Assembly: GCA_963664225.1 (NCBI GenBank)
Contig: OY760937.1
Coordinates: 2,016,001 to 2,080,000 of the forward strand
Length of the DNA stretch: 64,000 nucleotides
Direction of reading: 5' to 3'
Source of the DNA: Verrucomicrobiia bacterium
GTDB taxonomy: Bacteria > Verrucomicrobiota > Verrucomicrobiia > Limisphaerales > UBA1319
This document shows, in pieces, positions 15,572 through 49,457 of this stretch (the stretch's first letter is position 1; each line of letters begins with the position of its first letter). The notes beneath the pieces are model-generated. The model saw only the letters and a program-made list of their open reading frames with translations, made no database searches and was not told the origin of the DNA. Made by a program: the position numbers and the translations under genes.

Positions 15572-15988
15572 TCAGTGGTCATGACCGCCATAAATCCACA
15601 TGGGCTCGGTCTTGCCCGCGCGCTCAAATCCGCACTTGCGATAGAAATCCAGAGCGCGTCCGTCGGCCAGAAGTATGTGCTGGTGAAATCCCTCGTATCG
15701 CGCCAAGAGCCGCCGCATAAGCTCCGCGCCAATGCCGCGCCTCTGATACTCCGGCAGCACCAGCAAGTGCGGGTAGTAAACCACCAGACAACCATCCGAA
15801 ATGGCATTGCCAAGTCCGACAAGCTTCGCCCCATCCCAAGCCGTGACTAAGGAGTGAGACGCCAGCAGCGCCTTATGCAGCAACTCCGGCTTCTCTGCGG
15901 AGGACCACTCGTTCGCACGATAAAGAGCCAGAATGCCCTCCAGTGCCAACTCCCGCCCGTCGCTGTAACGAATGCCGTTGGATTTCAT
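15572..15988 (-). CDS. GNAT family N-acetyltransferase
   Basis: VLPEYQRRGIGAELM acetyl-CoA motif A; FYRKCGF. Confidence 0.92.
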   Translation of the reverse strand: MKSNGIRYSDGRELALEGILALYRANEWSSAEKPELLHKALLASHSLVTAWDGAKLVGLGNAISDGCLVVYYPHLLVLPEYQRRGIGAELMRRLLARYEGFHQHILLADGRALDFYRKCGFERAGKTEPMWIYGGHDH

Positions 15989-16137
15989 GAGTGTGATTCG
16001 GTATTTGTGTCGTGCATTGCGATGAAATCTGCCTTCTGAATGGCATCGACATCAGCATCCAAGTCCTCCTCGCGACGTGGCTGCTGAAAGGCACCAAACG
16101 CGTCCTCAATAATCGCCTGGATTTGCGCCCTGTTCAT
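15985..16137 (-). CDS. Small hypothetical protein or gene remnant (50 aa)
   Basis: MNRAQIQAIIEDAFGAFQQPRREED...; GAGG upstream; ATGA coupling to the GNAT gene. Confidence 0.35.
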   Translation of the reverse strand: MNRAQIQAIIEDAFGAFQQPRREEDLDADVDAIQKADFIAMHDTNTESHS

Positions 16138-16176
16138 TCTGATAACTTTTTGCTTTCCTCAAACACGTCCTATTTA

Positions 16177-18151
16177 GTAGAGTAGGCGAAATGGACGGAT
16201 TGAATGGCCGTGGCCAATGACCGTCGCATTTCGCCCCTCATCGAACCGGACAGGCGGTTTTCCCGCATCCGGCTCTCCGGGGATCATACGTTGCATCGCT
16301 TCGACGTCATCGTTTCCATGCCGCATATTCCGGCATTTGGTATAAACCATAACGCTCATAGAGATCCTCCTTGGGGTATGTGGACCATTGCGCCCGACTA
16401 CATCCGTGTTTGCGCCACAACCATCGTTGTAACTTGCTGCTGACGTATTCGTTCATCTGGCCCATCACCTTGGTGCTGTTCCCGTAGTGAAAGTAACCCT
16501 TCCAACCTTTGAGTTTCTTGTTGAGCTCGGGAATCACCTCTCCGATATCACGCCATAGCGTGCTTCGGTTGAGTTTCTCCCGAATCCCGTCTCGAAACTT
16601 CTTCTGGCTCTTGGGATGGGGTTCCACATGCGGATATTTCCATTTCCCCTTCCCCTGTCGCATTGTTAGCGCGAATCCCAAGAATTTGATGCCATCCTGG
16701 CGGAGGTCCACCAAGCGGGTCTTCTTCTCGTTGAGCACTAACTCGCGTTGCTTCAGCCATCGTTCCAGTCGTTCCATCAGTTCCCGTCCCTGCCCCGGCT
16801 GTCCGAGTATCACGAAATCATCCGCGTATCTCACCATCACGGGTTTGAGTTCGCAGCGTTCGTTGACTTCCCAATCCAACTGGTTGAGGTATGCATTGGC
16901 TAAAATCGGCGATACAACCCCGCCTTGCGGAGTCCCCCGTCGATTCTGACCTTGCCCCCCCTTTGTCCCGCCTTTCCCTGTGTCGCTTTGCGGTTCATTC
17001 ACGGGCGCGCGCAGCCATCCTGCGATCAGCTTGAGAATTGTTCCATCGCTGACCCGCTTGGCCACTATGCGCAACAAACGCCTGTGGGGAATGCTGTCAA
17101 AATACCCGCTTAAGTCCGCGTCTATAACTTCGACGCGTCCTGTCAGCGTAGCCTTCTTGATCGCCTCCATTGCTTGGTGGGCATTGCGTTTGGGATGATA
17201 GGCGTAACTGTTCGGATGACTATCGGCTTCCAGAATCGGCAGCAATACAATCACCACCGCTGTCTGCACCACCCGGTCTTTCACTGTCGGGATGCCCAGG
17301 GGTCGCAGCTTCCCGTCTCCTTTTGGTATATACACACGCTTCACCGGGCTTGGCCGATACTTCTTCGTGCGTAACTCCTCCAGCAGTTGGTTCCGCCATT
17401 GGTCCCAGGCTTCGTCGCTGGCAAGATAGACGTCGCATGTCTGCCCGTCGATCCCAGCCGCGCCATTGTTGTGCGCCACGGAGGCCATTGCCGTTTCCAG
17501 CACGTCCTTCCGCAGCAGTTCTCCGTAGAGGCTGTAAAACCGATACTTCGGCTCAGCCTTGGCTTTGCAATATAGCGCTCGCTGCAGCTTTTGAACTTTT
17601 ATCGGGGTTGTTATCCGTTGAAAAAGTGTTTCCACTCCCTCAAGGCCATCTCCCTGTCCCTCGCTGTTTTGATTCGCTTCGATCCAAGTGCCTTCCCTTG
17701 GCTCCGCCGGGGTTTTGGTCGCCCCAGCTTCTTCGCTACTATGGAAGACTCCGACTTCTCTGGCTGCCCGTGCGGCCTCGGAGGGTGTTCCTCCTTGCAC
17801 CGGCGGTTGAGGCTTTATCGCCCCGCCTCCAGAGATCTCCCAGCTTACCTTGGTTTCCCTTCCTGTCGTGTCGCCCTCGCTGACTCCGCCGGAATCAACA
17901 GCGCCCATTTGACGATTTGATGACGCCGCGTTTCTGCCTTCGCCGTTCGGGTAGCGGCTCGGCTTACCGGTTATTTCGGTTTCGGAGCTCATTTGATGAG
18001 GTTTACTTTCGTTACGACCCGACAGTTCTTTCAGCGTCCCGCTTGTGGTTCGGCCTCACGGCCTCGTCCCGGACGCTGCATTTCGGTCGTGAACCGTCTA
18101 ATTCGACCGGCGGGACTTTCACCCACGAGGCTACCAATTTCACTGGCGCAC
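16177..18151 (-). mobile_element. Group II intron, copy 1 (1975 nt)
   Basis: 5' GTGCG at 18151; domain V GAGCCGGATGCGGGAAAACCGCCTGTCCGGTTC at about 16243-16275; 3' end CCTACTCTAC at 16177; EBS1 17946-17952 and EBS2 17982-17987 pair with the 5' exon; second copy confirms the boundaries. Confidence 0.95.
16307..17635 (-). CDS. ltrA: Group II intron reverse transcriptase/maturase without endonuclease domain
   Basis: RPLGIPTVKDR, DADLSGYFDSIPH, GTPQGGVVSPILAN, RYADDF, X domain GWKGYF. Start uncertain: frame is open to 17992, GTG 17635 chosen. Confidence 0.93.
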   Translation of the reverse strand: METLFQRITTPIKVQKLQRALYCKAKAEPKYRFYSLYGELLRKDVLETAMASVAHNNGAAGIDGQTCDVYLASDEAWDQWRNQLLEELRTKKYRPSPVKRVYIPKGDGKLRPLGIPTVKDRVVQTAVVIVLLPILEADSHPNSYAYHPKRNAHQAMEAIKKATLTGRVEVIDADLSGYFDSIPHRRLLRIVAKRVSDGTILKLIAGWLRAPVNEPQSDTGKGGTKGGQGQNRRGTPQGGVVSPILANAYLNQLDWEVNERCELKPVMVRYADDFVILGQPGQGRELMERLERWLKQRELVLNEKKTRLVDLRQDGIKFLGFALTMRQGKGKWKYPHVEPHPKSQKKFRDGIREKLNRSTLWRDIGEVIPELNKKLKGWKGYFHYGNSTKVMGQMNEYVSSKLQRWLWRKHGCSRAQWSTYPKEDLYERYGLYQMPEYAAWKR

Positions 18152-18152
18152 A

Positions 18153-19684
18153 CCCGAACTCCGAGATAGAAAAAGAGGTCGCAATGCGCAACCTTCTGAG
18201 GCAATAGGGTTTGATGCTAAACAAGCCCGCTTCAGACTCGCACAAAACGACCCCAGTCGAAATTAGCGCTCTTTTCGGCCAAGCCAAGCTCTATCTGGAT
18301 GAGACTCCCAAGGCCATAACCCCCTTCGGCGGTCTGGCTTCATTCATAACCTTTTTGGGTCAGATCGGCTATGCGCAGGCGGTGCAGCGGTGCTTGCCGT
18401 TTGCCGCGCCCACTTCACCTAATGCCATTCCTCTAGCCCATACGCTGACCAGTTTTATCGTATCTGTGGTGGCGGGAGCACGCCGCTTTGCCCACTGTCA
18501 GTGGCTGCGTGCCGATCATGTTCTGCACGCCATGCTGGGGATGGAACGTTTCCCGGGCGATGACACCATCCGCAACTTCTTCCTGCACTTTGGCCAGGGC
18601 CACATCGAAGCGTTCTGGCGACCGCTCTGGCGATGGCTGCTCAATCTGCTGGCCTGCCCCAAGGCAGGCTTCTCGTTGGATCTGGATTCGACCGTGTTCT
18701 GCCGGGAGGGTTCGCAGGAGGGGGCTGCCAAGGGGTACAATCCACGCCGCAAGGGGCGCAAGAGCCATCATCCGCTCCTGGCGGTGCTGGCCGAAGCGCC
18801 GTTTATCCTGCATGGATGGTTGCGCAGCGGCAACACCGGAGCCGCGCGCGGGGTGGTGCCGTTTTTGCAGGAGGCATTGGCCCTGTTGCCCGAGGGAACG
18901 TGGATTCGGTGCGTGCGTGCCGACAGCGGGTTCTTCGATGAGGCGTTAGTGACGTTTTTGGAAATGCGCAAATTAACCTACATTGTGGTGGCGCGCATGA
19001 CCTCCACGATCAAATACCATTGCGTGGGAATCCAGAACTGGAAAGCCATCGATGAAAATCATGCCGTGGGGGAGTTTAGAGCCCAACTCTTTGGCTGGTC
19101 CACTGCCCGGCGATTCGTGGTGCTGCGGGAGCGGATCAGGGAAGACAAGGAGGCTCTGGGTCGCAAGCTCATTGATGTGCCCGGTTACACCTTTCGAGTG
19201 TGCGTCACCAACCGAAGTGAAGGCGCGCTGGAACTGTGGAGGGACTACAACGGAAGGGCCACCATCGAGCAGCGGATCGAGGAGCTGAAGAATGATCTGG
19301 CTGCCAACGGTTTTTGCCTGAAATCGTTTTTCGCCACCGAGTCGGCGTTTCTGGCGGTGCTCTTCACATTCAACCTGCTGAGTCTTTACCAGCATCAGAC
19401 CACTCCAACCCAGCCATACCGCCAGCCAGGAACATTGCGGACGACGGTTTTTCTGGCGGGAGCCCTCTTGGGAACGATGGGGCGTGATGTGGTGGTGAGG
19501 CTCTCGGCGGCCTGGGGTGGACTGGCTAAACACAAGCCGTTGATAGAAACCACGTTGAACTGGTTGAAAAGCGCGTCGCCGAAGTTGGTGCCACCGGAAG
19601 CCCGGCAAGCTTTCGGAGGGGGCGGAATATGACCGGAGGGGTTAGCGGTTCCCTAAAAAAACCGACCTAACTTCGGAGTTCGGG
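18153..19684 (+). mobile_element. Complete IS1380-family insertion sequence (1532 bp)
   Basis: 12-bp perfect IRs CCCGAACTCCGA; TSD TTTAA at 19685-19689 and, on the left, split by the intron (16173-16176 + 18152). Confidence 0.93.
18211..19632 (+). CDS. IS1380-family DDE transposase
   Basis: TPFGGL, LDLDST, GYNP..G..SHHPL, RADSGFF, YNGRATIEQRIEELK. Confidence 0.93.
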   Translation: MMLNKPASDSHKTTPVEISALFGQAKLYLDETPKAITPFGGLASFITFLGQIGYAQAVQRCLPFAAPTSPNAIPLAHTLTSFIVSVVAGARRFAHCQWLRADHVLHAMLGMERFPGDDTIRNFFLHFGQGHIEAFWRPLWRWLLNLLACPKAGFSLDLDSTVFCREGSQEGAAKGYNPRRKGRKSHHPLLAVLAEAPFILHGWLRSGNTGAARGVVPFLQEALALLPEGTWIRCVRADSGFFDEALVTFLEMRKLTYIVVARMTSTIKYHCVGIQNWKAIDENHAVGEFRAQLFGWSTARRFVVLRERIREDKEALGRKLIDVPGYTFRVCVTNRSEGALELWRDYNGRATIEQRIEELKNDLAANGFCLKSFFATESAFLAVLFTFNLLSLYQHQTTPTQPYRQPGTLRTTVFLAGALLGTMGRDVVVRLSAAWGGLAKHKPLIETTLNWLKSASPKLVPPEARQAFGGGGI

Positions 19685-19797
19685 TTTAAAACATACAAAT
19701 CCAACAGATAACAGGCTAGTTTTGTCTGTGTTTGCTCTCGATCAAGTTTTGCATTTCAGATTGAAGGTTTTTCCAGGTTCCTGCATCTAAAGGAGAT

Positions 19798-21132
19798 ATG
19801 AACAACTCGTTGGGATTGTCGCCCTGGCGCCGGGCCGCCGCCGGAATTTTGTCGTGTTCCCTATTTTTGGGACTGTCCTCATATCTTCAAGCGGAGAATT
19901 GGCCGCAATGGCGGGGTCCGCTCCTCAATGGGGCCACCACGGAGACCAATCTTCCCTCGCAGATCGATAAGACGAACGCCTTGTGGACCGTGCCGATGCC
20001 GGGAAAAAGCGGCGCCACGCCGATCATCTGGCAGGACCGTGTGTTCATCTCCAGCCCGGATTCGGAAAAAAATATCCACTTGATTTGCATCAACCGCGTG
20101 GACGGCAAAGTGCTTTGGGACAATCGCCTGGCTACGGGCGATCTGCAGGTGGGCAAAAACAACGCCGCATCGCCGTCCCCCGTGACCGATGGCAAAACGG
20201 TCTGGTTGATTTGCGCCACGGGAGACATTGCCGCTTATGATTTCACCGGACGCGAACTCTGGAAGCGGAACCTGGCCAGGGAATACGGCGCATTTTCCTA
20301 TATGTGGCTCTACGGCAGCTCGCCGCTGCTGCTCGATGGAAGACTCTATATCCCTGTATTACAACGTGATACGCCAGCCTATGCGCATGCCAAGGATGAC
20401 AAGCCGGAGCGTGAGTCCTACCTGCTCTGCCTGGATGCGGCCACAGGCAAGAATCTCTGGCGCCACATCCGCCCGACCGATGCCATCGAGGAATCACAAG
20501 AGTCTTATGCCACGCCAGTTCCATTCGAATTCGAGGGGCGCAAGGAAATCCTGCTGGTGGGCGGGGATTATGTGACCGGGCACGATCCGGAAACCGGCGC
20601 GGAACTCTGGCGTTGTGGTGGATTGAATCCCAAGAAGTCGCACTGGGGCCGCACTATTACGTCGGTATCAACTTCGCCTGGAATGATTTATGCGTGCAGC
20701 GCCAAACGCGAAGTCATGCTGGCCGTGAAGGCTGGCGGCAAGGGACTGGTTACCGGCACGCATGTGGCGTGGACTTATACGGAGAACGTGCCGGACGTGT
20801 GTACCCCGCTCTATTATCAAGGCCAACTCTTTGTGCTGGATGGGGATAAGCAGATGATGACCTGCATGGATCCACGGTCCGGCGAGATCAAATGGCAGGG
20901 CAAGCTCGGCGTGCGCGAGATCTTTAGCGCGTCGCCGATGGGCGCGGATGGCAAAATCTATTGCTTCAGCGAGGATGGTTCCGTGGTGGTGCTGGCCGCC
21001 GGGAACGAGTTCAAAATACTGAGCACCAGTAACTTGGGCGAAGGCCCCAGCATGTCCACGATTGCCGCCGCACAAGGCCAGGTCTTTGTCCGCACCGCAA
21101 AGAACCTCTACTGCTTCGGTCTTAAGAAGTAA
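19798..21132 (+). CDS. PQQ-binding-like beta-propeller protein
   Basis: AENWPQWRGP N-terminus; repeated xxGxxxW blades; RTAKNLYCFG end. Confidence 0.9.
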   Translation: MNNSLGLSPWRRAAAGILSCSLFLGLSSYLQAENWPQWRGPLLNGATTETNLPSQIDKTNALWTVPMPGKSGATPIIWQDRVFISSPDSEKNIHLICINRVDGKVLWDNRLATGDLQVGKNNAASPSPVTDGKTVWLICATGDIAAYDFTGRELWKRNLAREYGAFSYMWLYGSSPLLLDGRLYIPVLQRDTPAYAHAKDDKPERESYLLCLDAATGKNLWRHIRPTDAIEESQESYATPVPFEFEGRKEILLVGGDYVTGHDPETGAELWRCGGLNPKKSHWGRTITSVSTSPGMIYACSAKREVMLAVKAGGKGLVTGTHVAWTYTENVPDVCTPLYYQGQLFVLDGDKQMMTCMDPRSGEIKWQGKLGVREIFSASPMGADGKIYCFSEDGSVVVLAAGNEFKILSTSNLGEGPSMSTIAAAQGQVFVRTAKNLYCFGLKK

Positions 21133-47375: not shown

Positions 47376-47461
47376 CGTCGGGGTGCTCATGGGAACGGGA
47401 GCGAAAGTGTTTCTTTTGAACGGGCGAAAGGCCGCCACGGCGAGACCACAGAATTGATTTA

Positions 47462-49436
47462 GTAGAGTAGGCGAAATGGACGGATTGAATGGCCGTGGCC
47501 AATGACCGTCGCATTTCGCCCCTCATCGAACCGGACAGGCGGTTTTCCCGCATCCGGCTCTCCGGGGATCATACGTTGCATCGCTTCGACGTCATCGTTT
47601 CCATGCCGCATATTCCGGCATTTGGTATAAACCATAACGCTCATAGAGATCCTCCTTGGGGTATGTGGACCATTGCGCCCGACTACATCCGTGTTTGCGC
47701 CACAACCATCGTTGTAACTTGCTGCTGACGTATTCGTTCATCTGGCCCATCACCTTGGTGCTGTTCCCGTAGTGAAAGTAACCCTTCCAACCTTTGAGTT
47801 TCTTGTTGAGCTCGGGAATCACCTCTCCGATATCACGCCATAGCGTGCTTCGGTTGAGTTTCTCCCGAATCCCGTCTCGAAACTTCTTCTGGCTCTTGGG
47901 ATGGGGTTCCACATGCGGATATTTCCATTTCCCCTTCCCCTGTCGCATTGTTAGCGCGAATCCCAAGAATTTGATGCCATCCTGGCGGAGGTCCACCAAG
48001 CGGGTCTTCTTCTCGTTGAGCACTAACTCGCGTTGCTTCAGCCATCGTTCCAGTCGTTCCATCAGTTCCCGTCCCTGCCCCGGCTGTCCGAGTATCACGA
48101 AATCATCCGCGTATCTCACCATCACGGGTTTGAGTTCGCAGCGTTCGTTGACTTCCCAATCCAACTGGTTGAGGTATGCATTGGCTAAAATCGGCGATAC
48201 AACCCCGCCTTGCGGAGTCCCCCGTCGATTCTGACCTTGCCCCCCCTTTGTCCCGCCTTTCCCTGTGTCGCTTTGCGGTTCATTCACGGGCGCGCGCAGC
48301 CATCCTGCGATCAGCTTGAGAATTGTTCCATCGCTGACCCGCTTGGCCACTATGCGCAACAAACGCCTGTGGGGAATGCTGTCAAAATACCCGCTTAAGT
48401 CCGCGTCTATAACTTCGACGCGTCCTGTCAGCGTAGCCTTCTTGATCGCCTCCATTGCTTGGTGGGCATTGCGTTTGGGATGATAGGCGTAACTGTTCGG
48501 ATGACTATCGGCTTCCAGAATCGGCAGCAATACAATCACCACCGCTGTCTGCACCACCCGGTCTTTCACTGTCGGGATGCCCAGGGGTCGCAGCTTCCCG
48601 TCTCCTTTTGGTATATACACACGCTTCACCGGGCTTGGCCGATACTTCTTCGTGCGTAACTCCTCCAGCAGTTGGTTCCGCCATTGGTCCCAGGCTTCGT
48701 CGCTGGCAAGATAGACGTCGCATGTCTGCCCGTCGATCCCAGCCGCGCCATTGTTGTGCGCCACGGAGGCCATTGCCGTTTCCAGCACGTCCTTCCGCAG
48801 CAGTTCTCCGTAGAGGCTGTAAAACCGATACTTCGGCTCAGCCTTGGCTTTGCAATATAGCGCTCGCTGCAGCTTTTGAACTTTTATCGGGGTTGTTATC
48901 CGTTGAAAAAGTGTTTCCACTCCCTCAAGGCCATCTCCCTGTCCCTCGCTGTTTTGATTCGCTTCGATCCAAGTGCCTTCCCTTGGCTCCGCCGGGGTTT
49001 TGGTCGCCCCAGCTTCTTCGCTACTATGGAAGACTCCGACTTCTCTGGCTGCCCGTGCGGCCTCGGAGGGTGTTCCTCCTTGCACCGGCGGTTGAGGCTT
49101 TATCGCCCCGCCTCCAGAGATCTCCCAGCTTACCTTGGTTTCCCTTCCTGTCGTGTCGCCCTCGCTGACTCCGCCGGAATCAACAGCGCCCATTTGACGA
49201 TTTGATGACGCCGCGTTTCTGCCTTCGCCGTTCGGGTAGCGGCTCGGCTTACCGGTTATTTCGGTTTCGGAGCTCATTTGATGAGGTTTACTTTCGTTAC
49301 GACCCGACAGTTCTTTCAGCGTCCCGCTTGTGGTTCGGCCTCACGGCCTCGTCCCGGACGCTGCATTTCGGTCGTGAACCGTCTAATTCGACCGGCGGGA
49401 CTTTCACCCACGAGGCTACCAATTTCACTGGCGCAC
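47462..49436 (-). mobile_element. Group II intron, copy 2 (1975 nt)
   Basis: Same ends and the same ORF-track translations as copy 1, offset by 31285 bp; different outer flanks. Confidence 0.95.
47592..48920 (-). CDS. ltrA: Group II intron reverse transcriptase/maturase (copy 2)
   Basis: Same protein as copy 1 with YADD; frame open to 49277, start uncertain. Confidence 0.93.
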   Translation of the reverse strand: METLFQRITTPIKVQKLQRALYCKAKAEPKYRFYSLYGELLRKDVLETAMASVAHNNGAAGIDGQTCDVYLASDEAWDQWRNQLLEELRTKKYRPSPVKRVYIPKGDGKLRPLGIPTVKDRVVQTAVVIVLLPILEADSHPNSYAYHPKRNAHQAMEAIKKATLTGRVEVIDADLSGYFDSIPHRRLLRIVAKRVSDGTILKLIAGWLRAPVNEPQSDTGKGGTKGGQGQNRRGTPQGGVVSPILANAYLNQLDWEVNERCELKPVMVRYADDFVILGQPGQGRELMERLERWLKQRELVLNEKKTRLVDLRQDGIKFLGFALTMRQGKGKWKYPHVEPHPKSQKKFRDGIREKLNRSTLWRDIGEVIPELNKKLKGWKGYFHYGNSTKVMGQMNEYVSSKLQRWLWRKHGCSRAQWSTYPKEDLYERYGLYQMPEYAAWKR

Positions 49437-49457
49437 ACCCGAAATCCGATGAAAGGA

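Follow-up and report, generated by a model that had tools for sequence, protein, structure and literature searches.

A group II intron at the junctions between IS1380-type element ends and their target duplications in a Verrucomicrobiia genome

Results and Discussion

Features of the locus

The window analyzed here is a 64,000-nucleotide stretch of a Verrucomicrobiia bacterium genome (bases 2016001-2080000 of a 5.78-Mb single contig, OY760937.1); positions are those of the window unless marked genome. It contains two copies of a group II intron, the first of which (copy 1) adjoins the left end of an insertion sequence (IS) belonging to the IS1380 family. The features at this junction are as follows.

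16173-16176, no strand: TTTA, bases 1-4 of the left target duplication; forms the 3' exon of intron copy 1, which reads TAAA on the minus strand
16177-18151, minus strand: group II intron copy 1, complete, 1975 nt, GUGCG...CUAC
16177-16277, minus strand: intron domains V and VI (D5 and D6); RF00029, 49.3 bits (gathering threshold 40), model positions 1-77 of 77
16310-17644, minus strand: intron-encoded protein (IEP), reverse transcriptase (RT) plus maturase (X); start codon provisional, longest frame from 17992
17874-18119, minus strand: core of intron domain I (D1); RF02005 (group-II-D1D4-6), 54.9 bits (gathering threshold 49); structure backed by alignment A4
18152, no strand: A on the plus strand, completing the left duplication copy as its base 5; last base of the 5' exon (T)
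18153-19684, plus strand: IS1380-family IS, 1532 bp; left inverted repeat (IR) 18153-18164, right IR 19673-19684
18211-19632, plus strand: transposase, 473 aa; NF033539, 227.2 bits (cut-off 180), profile positions 5-419 of 419; PF13701
19685-19689, no strand: right copy of the duplication, TTTAA

The GUGYG start, the Rfam scores, a bulged A in D6 and a protein with RT and X domains place copy 1 among the bacterial mobile group II introns. The AGC triad is present in D5. D6 is formed by pairing of GAG-GGGCGAAAUG with CAUUUCGCC-U-(A)-CUC, and its bulged A lies 7 nt from the 3' splice site, which places the end of the intron at CUAC and not five bases further on. The 561-aa frame of the IEP matches Pfam RVT_1 at residues 222-441 (E 1.8e-34) and GIIM at 464-536 (E 1e-13), contains a YADD motif and scores 357.1 bits on TIGR04416 (cut-off 300). 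Pfam identified no HNH endonuclease domain in the IEP, only RVT_1 and GIIM followed by 25 residues, and by this measure the intron is endonuclease-less. Plasmid matches to the IEP gave no class label, as all 2208 records were below 60% identity and annotated only as ltrA.

The IS is assigned to the IS1380 family on the basis of the NF033539 score, its 12-bp terminal IR (CCCGAACTCCGA) and the 5-bp duplication. Members of this family typically generate duplications of 4-5 bp and have IRs beginning with CC. A terminator-like hairpin with a T run (18176-18194, minus strand) is located just inside the left end of the IS, oriented outward and preceding the 13-nt 5' exon of the intron by 11 nt; three such hairpins were observed in the region, against 2.5 expected from shuffled sequences, which is not an enrichment. 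No outward sigma-70-like promoter was identified in 18100-19800 (0.8 expected), using a sigma-70 pattern that may not suit this host. Metagenome contigs of runs X6 and X7 over 16245-18978 contain slightly differing versions of intron and IS, and one metagenome contig of 1911 nt has seven differences, one of them at 17956 in the stem of the hairpin presenting exon-binding site 1 (EBS1, described below). Variants of the intron and the IS thus circulate beyond the source genome.

Transposable elements and intron copies in the genome

BLAST searches identified five copies of the IS in the genome, all 100% identical and with an open transposase frame; tblastn with the transposase returned the same five. 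A second element with closely similar ends is a miniature inverted-repeat transposable element (MITE), assigned as such from its short, non-coding sequence of 162 bp, its terminal IRs, its 5-bp TTTAA duplications and its many copies (~22, full or split). The MITE IR (CCCGAAATCCGAAATA) equals the IS IR at 11 of the 12 terminal bases, and the MITE is probably mobilized by an IS1380-type transposase. A 2027-bp element with MITE ends was considered as a parent of the MITE and ruled out: it proved to be a MITE interrupted by an IS of the IS1634 family (L099 = G000:C1:264054-267080; element at genome 264554-266580). The insert is ~1.86 kb and encodes an IS1634-family transposase (NF033559, 328.6 bits), and the outer flanks of this split MITE form no duplication. 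In two composites (genome 828002-831675 and 2984655-2988328), a MITE holds the IS1380-family IS at the same central TTTAA and in the same relative orientation, with different outer duplications (TTGAG and TTTAA, respectively). Either an IS-bearing MITE moved as a unit, or the IS struck the same MITE site twice.

The intron itself is present in 19 genomic copies, all full-length and 100% identical, with no fragments detected by BLAST; the R1 model found the same 19. Such identity suggests that the intron is currently active, as far as can be judged from sequence. The second copy in the window has the following features.

47457-47461, minus strand: 3' exon of copy 2, TAAAT
47462-49436, minus strand: group II intron copy 2, identical to copy 1
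49437-49449, minus strand: TCGGATTTCGGGT, solo IR-like sequence of the MITE type that serves copy 2 as its 5' exon

All 19 copies share the 5' exon TCGGA(G/T)TTCGGGT, in which position -8 is G or T. The 3' exon begins with TAAA in 10 copies and TTAA in nine, the first base being T throughout. Further upstream, the common 5' exon is preceded by at least five unrelated kinds of sequence, and a match shared by every copy despite such unrelated surroundings is above chance. By context, three copies are at the left end of the IS, one at its right end, 13 at MITE ends (two different ones) and two at solo IR-like sites. No element has an intron at both ends. The sequence-only reading of copy 1 had held that its account of the intron would fail if most other copies lay at sites unrelated to IS1380 ends; instead, 17 of the 19 adjoin recognizable IS or MITE ends, and the other two follow IR-like sequences.

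Order of insertion

Position 18152 is the sole base separating intron copy 1 from the IR. As proposed from the sequence of the locus, the 13-nt 5' exon TCGGAG-TTCGGGT comprises the 12-bp IR (18153-18164, inverted at 19673-19684) and one T, and removal of the intron restores TTTA|A in front of the IR, equal to the TTTAA at 19685-19689. When introns were removed in silico across the genome, 5-bp direct repeats matched in 21 of 23 elements (15 of the 16 that bear an intron), the sequence being TTTAA or TTAAA in nearly all cases. The element tips are fixed as CCC...GGG by two unoccupied elements whose duplications are TTTAT and TTGAG, which also show the T after GGG to be part of the duplication. 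Since the 5-bp duplication surrounds the element alone, the element inserted first and the intron afterwards, which upholds the order of events suggested for copy 1. The insertion point of the intron follows the first base of the duplication, with a single base between it and the IR, and the intron was not carried within the element.

A contrasting explanation is that the IS or MITE passively carries the intron along as part of a composite, with no homing to element ends. Some support for this comes from the two MITEs that contain both IS and intron and have duplications of their own. However, the insertion point is outside the IR and divides the duplication, which flanks the element alone in all but one of the intron-bearing cases, and the same intron adjoins four different end sequences, at either end of an element. 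Even within the two composites, the intron is at the left end of the IS in one and at the right end in the other, so these are independent insertions. With the strand distribution described below, passive co-transposition is highly improbable.

Guide sequences

The pairing of the intron with its 5' exon was predicted to involve the following segment.

17946-17952, minus strand: EBS1, ACCCGAA; pairs with intron-binding site 1 (IBS1), TTCGGGT (-7 to -1)

EBS1 occupies the 9-nt loop of a GCCG/CGGC hairpin, where the sequence-only reading had placed it, and is also unpaired in the RF02005 consensus. Five close relatives (L021, L023, L024, L025 and an ORF-less mini-intron of G034; ORF, open reading frame), with 75-78% IEP identity or 71% nucleotide identity and boundaries set by whole-intron alignment, each have a distinct EBS1 (ACCUGAA, UCCUGAA, CCACGGA, GCAUCCA and GCCGUAA) that pairs 7/7 with their own exon. 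A covariance model built on the EBS-bearing part of D1 gave 84 matches in 80 sources; 16 of the 84 matches were left out because they had no boundary or less than 25 nt of exon. EBS1 and exon pair at 6/7 positions or more, in the same register, in 57 of the remaining 68 rows compared with 39 of 960 mismatched partners, a figure favored by the choice of the GUGYG-like candidate with the best EBS1 score as the 5' boundary of distant relatives. Covariation in the relatives confirms the EBS1 assignment at the level of sequence.

These observations bear on a further alternative, in which the intron would recognize the shape of its target, a hairpin formed by the near-palindromic MITE in single-stranded DNA, with only a short guide match, as class C (IIC) introns do at terminators and attC sites. 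The MITE aligns with its own reverse complement at ~73%, the relative in L024 is at the tip of a ~75-nt palindromic repeat, and the G034 mini-intron is 29 nt from a ~195-nt nested inverted repeat. The terminator-like hairpin inside the left end of the IS would also fit, although hairpins of this kind do not exceed those in shuffled sequences. Against this, IS ends serve as sites (four copies) despite the 1.5 kb between them, the two solo sites have no partner arm, and EBS1 is 7 nt long and covaries with the exon. The same features argue against membership of class C. In addition, none of the five 12-mer IR-like ends that lack T after GGG is occupied; four of these are of the leading type defined below, leaving one that is informative. 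Recognition by shape is very unlikely on this evidence.

Two candidates were considered for the second exon-binding site (EBS2).

17971-17979, minus strand: alternative EBS2, CCGAAAUAA; in a hypervariable internal loop
17982-17987, minus strand: EBS2 of the sequence-only reading, CUCCGA; complementary to -13 to -8 of IS ends; CUCCG in helix GCUCCG/CGGAGU

The location of CUCCGA and its complementarity to the exon stand, and together with EBS1 it is fully complementary to the 13-nt 5' exon. Its placement in a loop does not: in the D1 fold, which puts EBS1 where it was expected, CUCCGA falls mostly in a helix, five of its bases (CUCCG) forming part of a conserved one. At the six pairs of GCUCCG/CGGAGU, the commonest pair is found in 52-54 of 55 distinct related sequences, counts that come from an alignment fitted to the model and are biased toward structure. 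The window intron is alone among the 55 in having U-A where the others have C-G, a compensated, two-sided change. The helix is followed by a 12-nt stretch (AAACCGAAAUAA), hypervariable in relatives, to which the Rfam consensus assigns no pairing.

The loop segment CCGAAAUAA pairs with -10 to -13 of IS ends and, over 9 bp in the one MITE copy examined (locus L001), with -10 to -18 of MITE ends. Runs of 5-7 pairs that start in the loop, beginning at -8 to -11, are present in five or six lineages (L082, L087, L081, L054:5933, L066 and the L032 family), and runs of at least five pairs in the helix segment are restricted to the window intron, L089 and L070 (at -21). In a Bradyrhizobium-type group (20 rows), no consistent EBS2 pairing was found, the only conserved feature being GACG at -13 to -10. 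We lean toward the loop as EBS2, a preference that rests on sequence comparison, over the register first proposed.

In that first register, CUCCGA would be the working EBS2, pairing with -13 to -8 directly beside IBS1, and the helix would open upon target binding. It offers six contiguous pairs of six with both IS ends, a zero gap to IBS1 and, in the shifted form UCCGAAA, seven pairs with MITE ends at -9 to -15; moreover, the U-A pair unique to the window intron (1/55) is what creates the CUCCGA match. On the other hand, CUCCG is the 5' strand of the helix retained in nearly all relatives, and the compensation of the window change on the 3' strand argues for retention of the helix here too. 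The adjoining 12-nt loop is hypervariable, as is EBS1, and the other lineages start their runs in the loop and not in the helix segment. We consider the CUCCGA register possible but doubtful. The existence of two registers is explained by a short tandem motif found in the guide region as well as in the IR. In a more speculative reading, which we consider unlikely, the lineage-specific double change in the D1 helix may let the guide work in two registers, suited to the IS-type and the MITE-type IR, respectively.

Strand bias and replication

The intron is on the plus strand in 13 copies, along the arc that runs from genome 2.986 Mb across the contig end to 0.95 Mb, and on the minus strand in six, between genome 1.66 and 2.19 Mb. 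The replication origin was set at dnaA (genome 2.991 Mb) and the terminus at a local maximum of the cumulative GC skew (1.41 Mb). A third independent marker, gene-strand bias, agrees in outline: it switches to plus at ~3.0-3.2 Mb and returns to minus somewhere in the interval 0.5-1.2 Mb. Counting only element ends with T after GGG, 18 of 26 ends are occupied on the template for lagging-strand synthesis, versus 1 of 25 on the other strand (Fisher 1.1e-6); the lagging and leading labels are approximate, given the marked inequality of the replichores and an atypical GC skew. The bias matches the preference reported for RmInt1 and RmInt2. It also follows genome position and not the orientation of the element, which is a further argument against passive co-transposition; the one wrong-strand copy falls in a MITE-IS-intron composite, as that explanation would have it.

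The GC skew rises across most of the contig and is flat at 1.8-3.6 Mb, giving an apparent terminus at ~1.0-1.4 Mb and replichores of ~4.1 and 1.7 Mb. These unequal replichores suggest rearrangements, perhaps between the many repeats.

Proposed mechanism

From the anatomy of the intron, the 19 of 19 sites, the order of insertion, the covariation of EBS1 and the strand bias, we conclude that this endonuclease-less intron very probably retrohomes into the junction between an IS1380-type element end, whether of IS or MITE, and its target duplication. In the mechanism we propose, the transposase would place an IS or MITE into TTTAA/TTAAA, both ends then reading outward as ...TCGGA(G/T)TTCGGG-T|T(A/T)AA. 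The intron ribonucleoprotein would pair its 7-nt EBS1 with TTCGGGT, that is, the last six bases of the IR and the first duplicated T, and a second guide segment would pair with IR bases deeper inside, the first 3'-exon base always being T. The RNA would reverse-splice one base outside the IR, chiefly into the template for lagging-strand synthesis and, by analogy with RmInt1 and RmInt2, at the replication fork, and would then be copied into DNA. Every new transposition would supply two new sites, one per strand. The element remains whole because the intron sits outside the IR, and it presumably still transposes with the intron alongside. The earlier proposal that transposon ends act as renewable sites, used with no damage to the IS, is supported by the occupancy of these sites in all 19 copies, the split duplication, the strand bias and the open frame of the five identical IS copies.

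Several observations weigh against this mechanism. The two solo sites, window copy 2 and genome 3974267, have no recognizable element body: the 5' exon of copy 2 is 8 nt past the stop codon of a ferredoxin-like gene with no recognizable MITE body, and the site at genome 3974267 has weak similarity to half a MITE across ~50 nt. Eight lagging-type ends are empty, four of them with a full TTTAA/TTAAA flank (genome 266580, 623754, 3232797 and 3982650), and the pool of sites is unsaturated. The sole copy in the wrong orientation (genome 2986270, ~4 kb from dnaA) belongs to a MITE-IS composite, possibly one that was transposed as a whole. Neither EBS2 register fits the exons of the five close relatives. 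The boundary choice and omitted rows behind the EBS1 count, and the approximate replication labels, belong with these points. Sequencing runs are neutral in this respect: the 24 listed include no RNA run, and contigs of four of them (X4-X7) over 15800-19900 gave no joints and bridge neither an empty site nor a spliced junction, being short unitigs that stop at repeat borders.

It is also possible to view intron, IS1380-type transposase and MITE as a three-part system, in which the intron regulates the transposon family and is more than a lodger, although we consider this unlikely. In such a system, the junction that is read, composed of the IR tip and the first base of TTTAA, would exist only in an integrated element, and the intron would gain its two fresh homing sites per transposition while never disabling its site-maker. 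It may also change the occupied end, for instance by blocking reuse of that end or by insulating neighboring genes from outward transcription.

Relatives and other repeats

Among 60 relatives searched for IS1380 ends, long matches were limited to G034, G048 and G005, all on broken contigs, and the R1 model found D1 in one of five selected genomes. The five close relatives from metagenome-assembled genomes are mostly on short contigs (2.0-3.2 kb for L021-L023 and L025; 10.6 kb for L024), and their exons differ from the IR described here. The relative in L024 (L024:1900-1980; 76% IEP identity) is exactly at the end of its ~75-nt palindrome, which is built of CACGGAT/ATCCGTG units. The final seven bases of this repeat are the pairing partner of EBS1 (CCACGGA) in this relative. 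The ORF-less mini-intron (L003:1308-2002, G034:C102) is ~695 nt long, has its own 7/7 EBS1/IBS1 pairing, and shares 71% identity with the 508 nt at the 5' end of the window intron and 84% with its 3' end.

A second repeat of ~1.97 kb is present in four copies (G000:C1:1676532-1678500, ~2329490-2331456, 5161411-5163379 and 5604130-5606098). It ends with CUCUACUCUAC, and it is 76% identical to part of the RT region. It probably represents a further family of group II introns, whose GUGNU start would lie ~20 nt upstream of its conserved core. It was considered as an internal control and set aside: the flanks of its four copies are unrelated to the IS ends, and it gave no match to the R1 model. 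Adjoining it is a 1280-bp repeat (genome ~1674981-1676262 and 10 more; at least 11 copies, 98-100% identity), presumably another IS.

Comparison with known systems

Whether homing into IS ends had been described before was left undecided by the sequence-only reading; the principle is already published for RmInt2 of Sinorhizobium meliloti GR4, every copy of which is within the inverted repeats of ISRm17, with homing assays reported (PMC4615759). The repeats of ISRm17 provide two sites on opposite replication strands, ensuring that at least one is on the lagging strand (PMC4615759; PMC5894124). Like the window intron, RmInt2 is endonuclease-less, has its IBS in the terminal IR of an IS (PMC4615759; PMC5894124), and is multicopy, with seven copies in its genome.

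The two introns differ in where they insert. The RmInt2 copy compared is inside the IS, 20 nt from its tip by the left coordinate given (132887), reads inward and splits the IR, whereas the window intron reads outward and is one base outside the IR, within the target duplication. The site of the window intron therefore exists only after integration and depends on the preference of the element for TTTAA. The introns are also of different types: RmInt2 matches RF01999 (107.3 bits) and the window intron RF02005, and their IEPs are 28% identical, which places the window intron outside the class D of RmInt1 and RmInt2. The IS family differs as well, and here a MITE supplies 13 of the 19 sites.

The target of RmInt1 is within a transposase gene; the window intron, in contrast, interrupts neither coding sequence nor IR. 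RmInt1 resembles it in being endonuclease-less, in homing into an IS (ISRm2011-2) by EBS/IBS pairing and in its preference for the lagging-strand template (PMC5894124; PMC8914252), and its insertion blocks the spread of ISRm2011-2 (PMC5894124). Class C introns share with the window intron a position next to a repeated structured motif outside genes and the lack of an endonuclease (PMC7923331). They are described as having an IBS1 of 3-4 bp, no EBS2 pairing and hairpin recognition (PMC7923331), unlike the window intron with its longer, covarying EBS1 and its use of ends with no nearby partner arm.

Beyond the RmInt2 papers, no homing into IS inverted repeats was found in the literature searched, which excludes most subscription journals, and within the same coverage neither IS1380 nor MITE ends were found as a group II intron target. 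The present case is new in the class of intron and the family of IS, in an insertion point immediately beyond the element, at a junction created only by integration, in the dependence of the site on the TTTAA preference of the element, and in the contribution of a MITE to most sites. With 51 near-identical candidate ends, the genome constitutes a natural experiment on the colonization of a chromosome by an endonuclease-less group II intron. Introns specific for such junctions break short-read assemblies at IS and MITE ends and can serve as markers for insertion order. The strategy described for RmInt2 and ISRm17 is thereby extended to another intron class, another IS family and MITEs, in a form that spares the target element.

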